A stretch of 64,000 nt of DNA, taken from NCBI RefSeq assembly GCF_016026235.1, contig NZ_CP065613.1. One strand, given 5' to 3'. Each line of letters begins with the position of its first letter. The stretch's first letter is position 1. This DNA comes from Escherichia coli (GTDB lineage Bacteria; Pseudomonadota; Gammaproteobacteria; Enterobacterales; Enterobacteriaceae). A program made the position numbers and the translations under genes. Shown here one piece after another: positions 26,701 through 30,011 of the stretch. The notes under the pieces were generated by a model, which saw nothing but the letters and a program-made list of their open reading frames with translations, was not told the origin of the DNA and searched no databases.

Positions 26701-27358
26701 CCCGCGTCTTGAAGCTGCCCTACGTACCACCCGACGCTGGTCGCTGGCAGATTTTCATTCTCTGTTTGTTAATCATCCCTTTACCCGTCTGGTTACCCAG
26801 CGATTAATATGGGGGGTTTATCCGGCAAATGAACCGCGTTGTTTACTCAACGCCTTTCGTGTGGCCGCAGAGGGGGAGTTCTGCAATGCGCAAGATGAGC
26901 CAATTGACCTGCCTGCGGACACTCTGATTGGCATTGCCCACCCGTTAGAAATGACAGCAGAAATGCGCAGTGAATTTGCACAGCTTTTTGCCGATTACGA
27001 AATTATGCCGCCTTTTCGCCAGTTGTCGCGCCGCACGGTGCTGCTCACACCTGACGAGTCAACCAGTAACAGCCTGACTCGCTGGGAAGGTAAATCCGCT
27101 ACCGTTGGGCAACTTATGGGAATGCGATACAAAGGCTGGGAGTCAGGCTATGAGGACGCATTTGTCTATGACCTGGGTGAGTACCGGCTGGTCCTTAAGT
27201 TTTCACCCGGTTTTAACCACTACAATGTTGATAGCAAAGCGCTAATGAGCTTCCGTTCTCTTCGAGTGTACCGTGACAATAAATCCGTCACTTTTGCCGA
27301 ACTTGATGTGTTTGATTTGAGTGAGGCGTTAAGCGCACCTGACGTCATTTTCCATTAA
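23726..27358 (+). CDS. yehI: large uncharacterised protein, intact third paralog of the array
   Basis: 1210-aa uninterrupted ORF; C-terminal ~480 aa homologous to the C-termini of the two upstream genes. Confidence 0.8.
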   Translation: MDKELPWLADNAQLELKYKKGKTPLSHRNWPGEPVPVITESIIQTLGDELLQKAEKKKNIVWRYENFLLEWQSAITQAINLIGEHKPSIPARTMAALACIAQNDSQQLLDEIVQQEGLEYATDVVMARQCIARRYESDSLVVTLQYQDEDYGYGYGSATYNDFDLRLRKHLSLAEESCWQRCADKLIAALPGIPKIRRPFIALILPEKPEIANELASLESSRSSLHSKEWLKVVATDNTAVKKLERYWGLDVFSDREASYMSQKNHFGYAACAALLREQGLAAIPRLAMYAHKEDCGSLLVQINHPQVIHTLLLVADKNKPSLQRVAKYSKNFPHATLAALAELLALKEPPARPGYPIIEDKKLPAQQKARDEYWRTLLQTLMASQPQLAEEVMQWLSTQARAVLNSYLLAPPKPVIDGTDNSNLPEILVSPPWRSKKKMTAPRLDLAPLELTPQVYWQPGEQERLASTESARYFSTESLAERMEQKSGRVVLQELGFGDDVWLFLNYILPGKLDAARNSLIVQWHYYQGRVEEILNGWNSPEAQLAEQALRSGHIEALINIWENDNYSRYRPEKSVWNLYLLAQLPREMALTFWLRINEKKHLFAGEDYFLSILGLDALPGLMLAFSHRTKETFPLILNFGATELALPVARVWRRFAVQRDLARQWILHWPEHTATALIPLVFTKSSDNSEAALLALRLLYEHGHGELLQTVANRWQRKDVWPALEQLLKQGPMDIYPARIPKAPDFWHPAMWSRPRLITNNQPVTDDALEIIGEMLRFTQGGRFYSGLEQLKTFCQPQTLAAFAWDLFTAWQQAGAPAKDNWAFLALSLFGDESTARDLTTQILAWPQEGKSARAVIGLNILTLMNNDMALIQLHHVSQRAKSSSLRENAAEFLQVVAENRGLSQEELADRLVPTLGLDDPQALIFDFGPRQFTVRFDENLNPVIFDQQNVRQKSVPRLRADDDQLKAPEALARLKGLKKDATQVSKNLLPRLEAALRTTRRWSLADFHSLFVNHPFTRLVTQRLIWGVYPANEPRCLLNAFRVAAEGEFCNAQDEPIDLPADTLIGIAHPLEMTAEMRSEFAQLFADYEIMPPFRQLSRRTVLLTPDESTSNSLTRWEGKSATVGQLMGMRYKGWESGYEDAFVYDLGEYRLVLKFSPGFNHYNVDSKALMSFRSLRVYRDNKSVTFAELDVFDLSEALSAPDVIFH

Positions 27359-27418
27359 AACACAGCGGGCAGTGATGCAACTGCCCGTTATTAACACGAC
27401 TTACCAGCGGGGAAAGCG

Positions 27419-27739
27419 ATGATCGTGCAAAAAGAGCTGGTTGCTATTTACGATTATGAGGTCCCTGTACCTGAAGATCCGTTTTCCTTCAGACTTGAGA
27501 TCCATAAATGCTCTGAATTATTTACAGGTTCCGTCTATCGACTGGAGCGATTCCGGCTACATCCAACATTTCATCAACGTGATCGAGAAGATGCTGACCC
27601 GCTAATAAATGATGCGTTGATTTATATAAGAGATGAGTGTATTGATGAGCGGAAATTACGAGGTGAATCACCTGAAACTGTAATAGCAATTTTTAATCGT
27701 GAACTACAGAATATATTCATCCAACAAATAGAAAAATAG
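27419..27739 (+). CDS. yehK: small uncharacterised protein YehK
   Basis: 106-aa ORF with a GGGGAAAG Shine-Dalgarno. Confidence 0.7.
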   Translation: MIVQKELVAIYDYEVPVPEDPFSFRLEIHKCSELFTGSVYRLERFRLHPTFHQRDREDADPLINDALIYIRDECIDERKLRGESPETVIAIFNRELQNIFIQQIEK

Positions 27740-27792
27740 CTTTATTAAAGGGGGAAACGGTATTCCCCCTTAGATGCGTTTCAATTTGCCCG

Positions 27793-27882
27793 TTACTTCA
27801 ACAAATCAATCAACCGTAACAGAGCCACTAATAACTCCAGTACGGCAATGAGCACGATTAACTTTTGTGTCAGCGTGTCCAT
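27793..27882 (-). CDS. zorO: type I toxin, ZorO family (29 aa), copy 1
   Basis: AAGGAG-agcgg-ATG…TAA encodes MDTLTQKLIVLIAVLELLVALLRLIDLLK; terminator hairpin at 27749-27775; TATAAT-like -10 on the minus strand at ~28064-28069 implies a long 5' UTR. Confidence 0.75.
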   Translation of the reverse strand: MDTLTQKLIVLIAVLELLVALLRLIDLLK

Positions 27883-28120
27883 CCGCTCTCCTTATTAAGG
27901 AGCGCAACACCAGCACCTTACCCTTACACTGCCTGTCGATACTGGTTTACGTATGTTGGTACGAAACGTTGCTCTCCGGATCAGAGCACCGCCTGCGGCA
28001 CCACCCGTCCAGCAGCCAGGACTTAAAATTGGTCCGATCCGGCACAACCTCCCAACGGGCAGGATTATAAATCTCATTCACTGAATTGCAATGGAGTGTG
28101 GATATGGTTATAATTTATTC

Positions 28121-28201
28121 GTTGGTACGAAATGTTGCACAATCAGCAAGTTAGCGTCACTGTAGTAAATAAAAGAACCTGCCTCACCAGCAGGTTTTTT
28201 T
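28121..28201 (+). ncRNA. orzO: OrzO-type antitoxin sRNA, copy 1 (ends inferred)
   Basis: TATAAT at 28109-28114; hairpin acctgc-ctcacca-gcaggt plus T7 at ~28176-28201; 5' 18 nt (28121-28138) complementary to the copy-1 toxin 5' UTR (27955-27972) with one G-U. Confidence 0.6.
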
Positions 28202-28400
28202 ATTTTCTGCGATCTACTTTCCAGATATTTTTTGCCAATAGCCCACCATAAATATTCACATCCCGGTCAAATGGTGCGTTGAATATAAAATCGATGAACT
28301 TATAAATAAACATGAGTTATATGATGAATTAATAAAAACAGTAATCATTTTATTAAAGGGGGAAGCGGTTTTCCCCCTTAGATGCGTTTCAATTTGCCCG

Positions 28401-28490
28401 TTACTTCAACAAATCAATCAACTGTAACAGAGCTACTAATAGCTCCAGTACAGCAATGAGCACGGTTAACTTTTGTGTCAGCGTGTCCAT
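28401..28490 (-). CDS. zorP: type I toxin, ZorO/ZorP family (29 aa), copy 2
   Basis: Encodes MDTLTQKLTVLIAVLELLVALLQLIDLLK with the same Shine-Dalgarno and terminator arrangement as copy 1. Confidence 0.75.
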   Translation of the reverse strand: MDTLTQKLTVLIAVLELLVALLQLIDLLK

Positions 28491-28728
28491 CCGCTCTCCT
28501 TATTAAGGAGCGCAACACCAGCACCTTACCCTTACACTGCCTGTCGATACTGGTTTACGTATGTTGGACCACGATGTTGCACTCCGGATCAGGGCACCAC
28601 CTGCAGCACCACCCGTCCGGTAGCCAGGACTTGAAATAGGTTCGATCCGGCGCAACGTCCCAACGGTCTGGATTATAAATCTCATTATCTTAATTGCAAC
28701 GGGGTCCAGCCATGGTTATAATTCGTTC

Positions 28729-28811
28729 GTTGGAACACGATGTTGCACAGGCTGTGGTGTTAGGCCTGAAAATAGTAAATAAAAGAACCTGCCTCACCAG
28801 CAGGTTTTTTT
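28729..28811 (+). ncRNA. orzP: OrzO/OrzP-type antitoxin sRNA, copy 2 (ends inferred)
   Basis: TATAAT at 28717-28722; terminator at ~28786-28811; 5' 18 nt (28729-28746) match the copy-2 toxin UTR (28563-28580) but differ from copy 1 at 5 positions. Confidence 0.6.
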
Positions 28812-28922
28812 ATTTACTGTGATCTGCTTTCCAGATATTTTTCGCTCAAACAACTAATGCGCCAAACATTTATTGCGCGTAAAATATCGTTTATTTCATT
28901 AATACATTTCAGGGATGAATAT

Positions 28923-30011
28923 ATGTCACCGCAGAATAATCATCTGCAGCGTCCGCCTGCTGCTGTGTTATACGCCGATGAACTGGCAAAATTAAAACAA
29001 AATGATAACGCACCTTGCCCGCCCGGTTGGCAGTTAAGTTTGCCTGCGGCCCGTGCTTTTATCCTTGGCGATAGCGCGCAAAATATTAGCCGTAAAGTGG
29101 TGATTAGTCCCTCCGCTGTCGAACGTATGTTAGTCACTCTTGCCACCGGACGCGGTTTGATGTTGGTGGGGGAACCTGGCACCGCAAAATCTCTCCTGTC
29201 TGAATTACTGGCAACCGCTATTAGCGGCGATGCCGGGTTAACCGTCCAGGGCGGCGCATCTACTACCGAAGATCAAATCAAGTACGGCTGGAACTACGCC
29301 CTGCTTATCAATCATGGTCCATCAACGGAAGCGCTGGTCCCTGCCCCGCTTTACCAGGGAATGCGCGACGGCAAAATCGTCCGTTTTGAAGAGATAACGC
29401 GTACACCGCTGGAAGTGCAAGACTGTCTGTTAGGCATGCTTTCTGACAGGGTGATGACGGTGCCGGAACTCACTGGTGAAGCCAGTCAGCTCTATGCGCG
29501 AGAAGGCTTTAATATTATTGCCACTGCCAATACCCGCGATCGCGGCGTCAATGAAATGAGTGCTGCGCTAAAGCGTCGCTTCGATTTTGAAACTGTCTTT
29601 CCGATTATGGATTTCGCCCAGGAGCTGGAGCTTGTCGCCAGTGCTTCGGCGCGTTTGCTGGCCCATAGCGGTATTCCGCATAAAGTGCCTGACGCGGTAC
29701 TGGAGTTACTGGTCCGCACCTTCCGCGATCTGCGTGCCAACGGCGAAAAGAAAACGTCAATGGATACACTAACAGCGATTATGTCCACGGCTGAAGCCGT
29801 GAACGTGGCCCACGCCGTGGGCGTCCGCGCCTGGTTTTTAGCGAATCGCGCGGGGGAGCCTGCCGACCTGGTGGACTGTATTGCCGGAACCATCGTCAAA
29901 GATAACGAAGAAGATCGCGCTCGTCTGCGCCGTTACTTCGAACAGCGTGTCGCCACACATAAAGAAGCTCACTGGCAGGCTTATTATCAAGCCCGCCACC
30001 GCCTGCCGTGA
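28923..30011 (+). CDS. yehL: MoxR-family AAA+ ATPase
   Basis: Start at MSPQNNHLQRPPAAVLYADELAKL gives 362 aa; Walker A LVGEPGTAKS. Confidence 0.85.
   Translation: MSPQNNHLQRPPAAVLYADELAKLKQNDNAPCPPGWQLSLPAARAFILGDSAQNISRKVVISPSAVERMLVTLATGRGLMLVGEPGTAKSLLSELLATAISGDAGLTVQGGASTTEDQIKYGWNYALLINHGPSTEALVPAPLYQGMRDGKIVRFEEITRTPLEVQDCLLGMLSDRVMTVPELTGEASQLYAREGFNIIATANTRDRGVNEMSAALKRRFDFETVFPIMDFAQELELVASASARLLAHSGIPHKVPDAVLELLVRTFRDLRANGEKKTSMDTLTAIMSTAEAVNVAHAVGVRAWFLANRAGEPADLVDCIAGTIVKDNEEDRARLRRYFEQRVATHKEAHWQAYYQARHRLP

Follow-up and report, generated by a model that had tools for sequence, protein, structure and literature searches.

The closest described relative of the locus considered here is the zorO-orzO/zorP-orzP locus of Escherichia coli O157:H7 EDL933 (z3289/z3290; Fozo et al. 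2010; PMC3919570; PMC5397157). Overexpression of the EDL933 zorO allele is toxic to cells, which are rescued by the small RNA (sRNA) OrzO in an RNase III-dependent and Hfq-independent manner, and the first 18 nt of OrzO suffice for zorO repression when grafted onto OhsC or IstR (PMC3919570). OrzP fails to repress zorO despite 15 pairable nucleotides, and specificity moves with the V1 triplet when GAA is exchanged for ACG or the reverse (Wen 2014; PMC3919570). The 174-nt 5' untranslated region (UTR) of zorO mRNA sequesters the ribosome-binding site (RBS, +164 to +169); probing with lead and RNase T1 indicates that the region termed EAP (+73 to +102), a probable ribosome standby site, becomes open once 28 nt have been removed, and OrzO binds the 3' end of EAP, thereby also blocking translation (PMC5397157). 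The ZorO peptide localizes to the inner membrane and causes depolarization and ATP depletion, effects in which charged residues play a part (PMC9860968). We analyzed a window of 64,000 nucleotides of E. coli DNA (contig NZ_CP065613.1, assembly GCF_016026235.1), in which positions 27741-28845 almost certainly represent a chromosomal zor-orz locus consisting of two tandem, independently regulated type I toxin-antitoxin modules, zorO-orzO (unit 1) and zorP-orzP (unit 2).

The tisB-istR-1 and shoB-ohsC systems, the other divergent type I loci of E. coli classed as 'unconventional', resemble zor-orz in that a divergent sRNA is complementary over only approximately 18-21 nt to a long, structured toxin 5' UTR, the mRNA is activated by 5' processing, and the sRNA competes with standby binding far upstream of a sequestered RBS (PMC3919570, PMC5397157). 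Their sequences, peptides, and chromosomal sites are, however, unrelated to those of zor-orz. In addition, tisB is LexA-controlled, unlike zor-orz, and full-length zorO mRNA can be translated to some degree, unlike the +1 tisAB transcript (PMC5397157). Both systems are also single-copy and thus do not face the problem of discriminating between paralogues.

The locus in the window is flanked by yehK (27419-27739) and yehL (ending at 30011). This placement, which marks the Escherichia/Shigella members of the family, was common to the window, O157, UMNF18, the K-12 type, and other genomes with annotated neighbors, and the order of the units, O followed by P, is that of EDL933. A repeat search returned two pairs of direct repeats, 27723-28022/28331-28630 (91% identity) and 28163-28235/28773-28845 (95%), with a start-to-start spacing of 608-610 bp. 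Unit 1 extends over 27741-28237 and unit 2 over 28349-28845, 497 bp apiece, so the unit length of about 497 bp given in an earlier first-pass annotation of this DNA is correct, though the repeat period is 608. Between the repeat copies lies an AT-rich spacer of 111 bp (28238-28348), which is also conserved in the O157 locus.

Aligned with its O157:H7 counterpart, the locus is approximately 95% identical overall and 98.8% identical in unit 1, with no indels in any functional part, including the interval between the toxin -10 box and the AUG. The promoters, the RBS hairpin, the 174-nt UTR length, the 18-20-nt pairing sequences, the V1 triplets, and the sRNA terminators are identical. The differences comprise three amino acids (T9I in ZorO; T3 for S3 and R23Q in ZorP), a few scattered substitutions in the distal UTR, and about 57 extra bp in O157 at the point where yehK abuts unit 1 in the window. 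The first-pass description of the region as tandem zorO/orzO-type type I cassettes is upheld by Rfam family RF02083, by this alignment, and by the peptides named in UniProt. Since the regulatory sequences are identical, the T9I- and R23Q-bearing modules of the source strain are taken to work as those of EDL933, and the mechanism described for EDL933 is likely to be valid here as well. The present analysis established the anatomy of the locus, its identity to the characterized one, the pairing, the energetics of specificity, the co-variation across natural types, and the prevalence. The EDL933 literature is the source for toxicity, for the need for RNase III but not Hfq, for processing and the standby mechanism, and for discrimination by V1.

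Each unit contains a minus-strand gene for a hydrophobic 29-aa peptide, identified in the list of open reading frames (ORFs) and by alignment: zorO at 27793-27882, encoding MDTLTQKLIVLIAVLELLVALLRLIDLLK, and zorP at 28401-28490, encoding MDTLTQKLTVLIAVLELLVALLQLIDLLK. The canonical ZorO peptide, MDTLTQKLTVLIAVLELLVALLRLIDLLK, is the UniProt entry 'Small toxic protein ZorO' (ZORO_ECO57) of O157. Both window peptides are identical to it at 28 of 29 residues, the single differences being T9I in unit 1 and R23Q in unit 2. In relation to 'Small toxic protein ZorP' (ZORP_ECO57; MDSLTQKL...R...), the window ZorP has T3 instead of S3 as well as R23Q. The comparison with ZorO and ZorP had been named beforehand as a check, and the peptides passed it with one residue of difference each from ZORO_ECO57. 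An NCBIfam scan of both peptides matched no family in a library that holds no ZorO model; family membership rests on the near-identity found by exact and near-exact sequence look-up.

An AAGGAG Shine-Dalgarno sequence is located 5 nt upstream of the AUG in both units. Downstream of zorO, a palindromic arm (27748-27771, minus strand) forms the terminator hairpin GGGGGAA-N-TTCCCCC followed by UUUAAUAAA, which folds with -16.0 kcal/mol and is invariant in a four-unit alignment; with its short U run, it was missed by a simple terminator scan. The corresponding zorP hairpin (28356-28379, minus strand) was found as a palindromic arm in the repeat search and folds with -14.6 kcal/mol. Each unit has, as first proposed, a minus-strand 29-aa gene with a strong Shine-Dalgarno sequence and a terminator, the latter being a G5/C5 hairpin. 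The alleles themselves are rare: in complete E. coli genomes the exact window coding sequences (CDSs) occurred in 53 (zorO) and 37 (zorP) records, as against approximately 3,300-3,400 zor-CDS records. In a public collection, the exact ZorO T9I peptide was present on 74 contigs and ZorP R23Q on 217, and strains such as KTE171 carry both, under neighboring locus tags.

The antitoxin genes lie on the plus strand, orzO at 28121-28201 (approximately 81 nt) and orzP at 28729-28811 (approximately 83 nt). When 27000-29600 was scanned, the Rfam 'OrzO-P RNA antitoxin family' (RF02083; gathering score 60) matched 28128-28201 with 88.8 bits and 28736-28811 with 99.9 bits. Both matches span the full model (1-76), and a gathering scan of the whole window gave the same result. 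The fold and a 3' intrinsic terminator further support orzO, in which the 5' 18 nt constitute the pairing region. The sRNAs begin with GTTGGTAC-GAA-ATGTTGC and GTTGGAAC-ACG-ATGTTGC, and their V1 triplets, GAA at 28129-28131 and ACG at 28737-28739, are the discriminating triplets published for OrzO and OrzP (PMC3919570). In the alignment, the transcribed region of orzP is letter-for-letter that of O157, and by eye the orphan orzP of the K-12 type is the same. Weak Rfam E-value hits to Thr/Trp leaders and STnc370 over the sRNA terminators fell far under the respective cutoffs (gathering scores), and the terminator hairpin accounts for them. The units also overlap small ORFs on the plus strand, which were dismissed as presumed by-products of the repeat.

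A promoter scan placed the zorO promoter at 28064-28091 on the minus strand (-35 TTGCAA at 28091-28086, 16-nt spacer, -10 TATAAT at 28069-28064) and the orzO promoter at 28086-28114 on the plus strand (-35 TTGCAA at 28086-28091, 17-nt spacer, -10 TATAAT at 28109-28114). Unit 2 has the same arrangement within 28672-28722: TTGCAA-N16-TATAAT at 28699-28672 on the minus strand (-10 at 28672-28677) and TTGCAA-N17-TATAAT at 28694-28722 on the plus strand (-10 at 28717-28722). These back-to-back, sigma-70-like promoters match the consensus at 10 of 12 positions, and their -35 and -10 hexamers are 99-100% conserved across 2,439 loci (PMC11264685). The divergent plus-strand sRNA with a TATAAT promoter and a terminator was thus correctly described, as the TTGCAA-N17-TATAAT element and a GC-rich terminator hairpin are present in both units.

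The zorO and zorP leaders are 174 nt each (27883-28056 and 28491-28664, minus strand); by alignment, zorP is 100% identical to zorO from +103 to +174. The published UTR coordinates are transferable because the zorO leader has zero indels relative to the O157 unit. Transfer of these coordinates places the RBS AAGGAG (+164 to +169) at 27888-27893, inside the hairpin CUCCUUAAUAAGGAG, and the EAP/standby region (+73 to +102) at 27955-27984, both on the minus strand. With +1 set at 28056, 8 nt past the -10 box, the AUG falls at +175, GGAG at +166, and the best OrzO duplex at +85 to +102, values that coincide with those published (PMC5397157). A conserved GGAGAG just 5' of the pairing site fits the GGAGTG/AG motif described earlier (PMC11264685). 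The RBS hairpin was kept in every UTR fold predicted by ViennaRNA partition-function folding.

The cognate sRNA and UTR sequences were then compared on the plus strand. In unit 1, 28121-28138 (GTTGGTACGAAATGTTGC) and 27955-27972 (GTTGGTACGAAACGTTGC, minus-strand target site at +85 to +102 of zorO mRNA) differ by one letter and so pair without interruption over 18 nt, with a single G·U. In unit 2, 28729-28746 (GTTGGAACACGATGTTGC) and 28563-28580 (GTTGGACCACGATGTTGC, minus-strand target site in zorP mRNA) form 17 of 18 pairs with an A·G mismatch at position 7, and the pairing runs two bases further, to 20 nt (28729-28748 with 28563-28582), in the arrangement 6(1)13. The pairing sites of 18-20 nt are identical to those of O157. 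The first-pass statement that the 5' 18 nt of each sRNA are complementary to the cognate UTR therefore holds for unit 1 but has to be qualified by the internal mismatch for unit 2. Its figure of 5 differences in 18 positions between the units was wrong, since the sRNA 5' ends differ at four of 18 positions (6, 9, 10, and 11) and the UTR sites at six (6, 7, 9, 10, 11, and 13). Each non-cognate sRNA/UTR combination has five letter differences, which is probably where that figure came from.

Duplex energies were calculated with RNAduplex, using the 5' 22 nt of each sRNA and the 174-nt UTR. The cognate values were -31.3 kcal/mol for OrzO on zorO and -34.0 kcal/mol for OrzP on zorP, compared with -24.4 kcal/mol for OrzO on zorP and -18.9 kcal/mol for OrzP on zorO, i.e. 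the cognate duplexes were 7-15 kcal/mol more stable. Repression has been reported to need an unbroken run of 15 or more pairs, or else 17 or more pairs around a single internal mismatch (PMC3919570, PMC11264685). This rule predicts repression for the two cognate pairs and for neither of the non-cognate ones, and OrzP and zorO of the window form 15 of 18 pairs, as published for the non-repressing pair (PMC3919570). The suggestion of insulated cognate pairs made in the first-pass annotation is supported by the V1 triplets, which are those of Wen 2014, by energies favoring the cognate partner, and by the co-variation of sRNA and UTR.

To place the two units among natural variants, we assembled 20 units, drawn from 12 genomes that comprised the window, O157, another eight E. 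coli, E. whittamii, and two further Escherichia species. In every full unit, a change in the sRNA 5' end goes with a change in the UTR site, and the two fall into discrete types: O (GGTACGAAA), P (GGAACACGA), and Q (GAGATGCCA), plus one Q-like variant. Q-type units, with the sRNA 5' end GTTGAGATGCCATGTTGCAC, were found in four E. coli genomes, one of them an enteroinvasive strain, and two of the four encode the ZorQ A20S peptide. Across the types, cognate duplexes had energies of -31 to -34 kcal/mol and cross-type duplexes -19 to -27.5 kcal/mol. The differences between the two window units cluster in three segments, with identities of 0.67 in the UTR pairing site, 0.78 in the sRNA 5' end, and 0.47 in the sRNA middle, as against 1.00 in the UTR from +103 to +174 and in the sRNA terminator. 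The peptide is constrained: 11 distinct CDSs yield only six peptides, and half of the variable codons are synonymous. Neither ZorO T9I nor ZorP R23Q occurred in the 18 other units sampled. The comparison agrees with a 2024 survey, which described three locus types, reported that 99.8% of Orz can repress the zor they belong with, and suggested that variation in the pairing region prevents crosstalk (PMC11264685). Relative to the zorQ/orzQ and orz-only (OrzPmg) loci of that survey, which belong to the same family and site, the window carries the O+P rather than the Q+P combination, with both toxin genes intact.

A megablast search matched some orz sequence in 5,232 of 5,426 complete E. coli genomes, whereas the toxin-bearing segment (27741-27990) was matched in 3,398, with a median of two copies. 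The difference between the two counts means that approximately 34% of the genomes are orz-only, close to the published share of approximately 30% (PMC11264685). In the K-12-type strain OV2 (positions 2490-2720 of the locus compared, L002), the yehK-yehL interval contains orzP, the promoters of both orzP and zorP, and an initial portion of the zorP UTR, and no toxin ORF. The statement that the locus is absent from K-12 at this position is thus right as regards both toxin genes and wrong as regards orzP, which is retained intact along with these neighboring elements. The K-12 orphan corresponds to OrzPmg and has been detected by northern blot in MG1655 (PMC11264685). An exact 25-mer from the orz terminator, searched in one genome per species, was found at only three loci, all in Escherichia. 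As even the E. coli representative was unmatched, such an exact search speaks to presence alone, here in Escherichia species other than E. coli. In E. coli strain 165 (positions 387-1500 of the locus compared, L009), an IS903B element splits the 3' end of the zorO unit, in the terminator region, from the rest of the locus, and is an example of natural disruption at the zor-orz site.

Taken over from EDL933, the mechanism would run as follows. A minus-strand sigma-70 promoter would produce zor mRNA with a 174-nt 5' UTR, and the primary transcript would be poorly translated, its Shine-Dalgarno sequence being locked in a hairpin. Removal of the first 28 nt would open EAP as a ribosome standby site and permit synthesis of the 29-aa inner-membrane peptide, which, when over-made, would depolarize the membrane and deplete ATP. 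From the divergent plus-strand promoter, an Orz sRNA of approximately 80 nt would arise, and its pairing would block loading of the standby ribosome and lead to RNase III cleavage, with no need for Hfq. As the center of the pairing region differs by copy (V1 GAA in O and ACG in P, with flanking changes, all mirrored in the UTRs), each sRNA would be expected to repress its own toxin mRNA only.

Several points weigh against this account. The crosstalk test described in PMC3919570 concerns OrzP on zorO; that OrzO (-24.4 kcal/mol) would likewise fail on zorP is suggested by the calculated duplexes. In ViennaRNA folds, the 28-nt truncation changed the unpaired probability of the target site from 0.35 to 0.18 in zorO and from 0.25 to 0.48 in zorP; because the folds disagree between the copies, opening of EAP by processing rests on the published probing. 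The window ZorP has R23Q; of two other substitutions of this residue, R23L abolishes toxicity but R23E does not (PMC9860968). The literature has not settled what the system does physiologically at native expression levels (PMC9860968), and transcripts, processing, and toxicity in the present strain are predicted from its sequence.

The R23Q substitution leads to an alternative in which zorP-orzP is detoxified or decaying, unit 1 is the sole working pair, and unit 2 is kept on other grounds, for instance for the OrzP RNA or for the advantage in growth, independent of toxicity, that R23L has been reported to give in aminoglycosides. The residue is within the predicted transmembrane segment, R23L is non-toxic and yet improves growth in kanamycin (PMC9860968), the exact R23Q CDS is rare (37 records in relation to approximately 3,300), and Orz can evidently persist alone, as about a third of E. 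coli genomes have orzP without the toxin. However, the toxicity of R23E shows that loss of the positive charge alone does not abolish ZorO activity, and the glutamine substitutions K7Q, E16Q, and K29Q all leave the peptide toxic (PMC9860968). No damage is seen in the promoter, RBS, reading frame, or cognate pairing of unit 2, and the presence of the R23Q peptide on 217 contigs indicates a circulating allele rather than a private lesion. We therefore consider a detoxified unit 2 improbable.

The orz-only genomes (approximately 34%) and the orphan orzP, whose promoter and transcript are 100% conserved and which is expressed in MG1655 where no zor gene exists (PMC11264685), would also fit Orz sRNAs that act mainly in trans on other mRNAs, with toxin repression being secondary and the 5' ends reflecting external targets instead of insulation. 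This is hard to reconcile with the full units examined, in all of which variation in the sRNA 5' end is matched by variation in the UTR site of the neighboring toxin gene, a pattern that selection on external targets alone would not predict. Moreover, the first 18 nt of OrzO repress zorO when placed on unrelated sRNAs (PMC3919570), and no other Orz target is known (PMC11264685); a mainly trans-acting role is very unlikely. A third alternative is that a segment was recently duplicated and that its small ORFs and hairpins are chance-like and form no functional module; the sole point in its favor is that RefSeq annotates nothing under most matches. Since the same architecture is present in 3,398 of 5,426 complete genomes, it is not due to chance; it is also kept in other Escherichia species. 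Both sRNAs score far over the Rfam threshold, the zor-orz pairing sites show compensatory variation, and toxicity and rescue have been published for the near-identical EDL933 locus (PMC3919570), so that the probability of such a meaningless duplication is next to nil. The reading of two independently regulated modules is preferred over all three.

The locus, its mechanism, paralogue discrimination, and population distribution have already been published (Wen 2014; Wen 2017; mSystems 2024), and the insulation idea, the copy-number variation, and the K-12 orphan orzP are likewise in print. What is new is confined to the two rare peptide alleles and the possible consequences of a shared -35 element. 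TTGCAA is palindromic, and the same six base pairs (28086-28091 in unit 1 and 28694-28699 in unit 2) serve as the -35 of both the toxin and the antitoxin promoter. The 2024 survey gives identical conservation figures for 'both' -35 elements (PMC11264685), and we did not find a discussion of promoter sharing in the two zor-orz papers searched. On any one DNA molecule, RNA polymerase bound to transcribe the toxin could exclude polymerase bound to transcribe the antitoxin, and vice versa; if true, control of the locus would include a toggle at the level of transcription besides the known post-transcriptional one. R23Q ZorP, likewise undiscussed in the texts searched, may be a natural attenuated allele. 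Taken jointly, these two proposals are speculative and somewhat doubtful. T9I and R23Q are in any case ready-made natural variants for the toxicity studies under way on the ZorO peptide, and the zor/orz genes, which are unlabelled by RefSeq in most genomes, can here be assigned with confidence.

On the yehK side of the locus, the yehK stop codon (27737-27739) is 9 nt from the palindromic zorO terminator hairpin (27748-27771), which may also terminate yehK transcription. In several E. coli genomes, a 117-aa RefSeq 'hypothetical protein' replaces yehK and reaches approximately 30 nt into the first unit.

Elsewhere in the window, the sequence was compared with UMNF18, the genome otherwise closest to it and 99.9% identical over the zor-orz locus; collinearity breaks at window positions 1-3118 and 39264. 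A thiM-type thiamine pyrophosphate riboswitch (3073-3169, minus strand) is located where UMNF18 has an integrase-bearing island beside rcnR, and an array of DUF4132 paralogues upstream of yehI (14100-22250; molR/yehH region) is arranged otherwise than in UMNF18. Beyond 39264, which falls within mlrA (yehV), a known integration site of lambdoid phages, the window is no longer collinear with the E. coli backbone. The remaining part, 39265-64000, is a lambda-like prophage with genes for tail fibre, J, tape-measure, and terminase, approximately 91% identical to mEp460 and PhiR55_1 over approximately 76% of the stretch. A cargo region at the prophage end (39897-42807), adjoining btsS, contains an intact 547-aa ORF for an ipaH-type type III secretion system effector E3 ubiquitin ligase (41164-42807, plus strand), an S-adenosylmethionine-methyltransferase ORF (40180-40848, plus strand), a DinI-like gene, the Rfam RNA CssrB, 'Shigella sRNA B' (40857-41036, minus strand, 230 bits), and IS009 (39897-40100, minus strand). 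The ipaH effector suggests that the DNA comes from a Shigella or an enteroinvasive E. coli-like strain. The prophage junction was present in only seven of 5,426 complete E. coli genomes, including CFSAN029787, where the ipaH copy is annotated as frameshifted.

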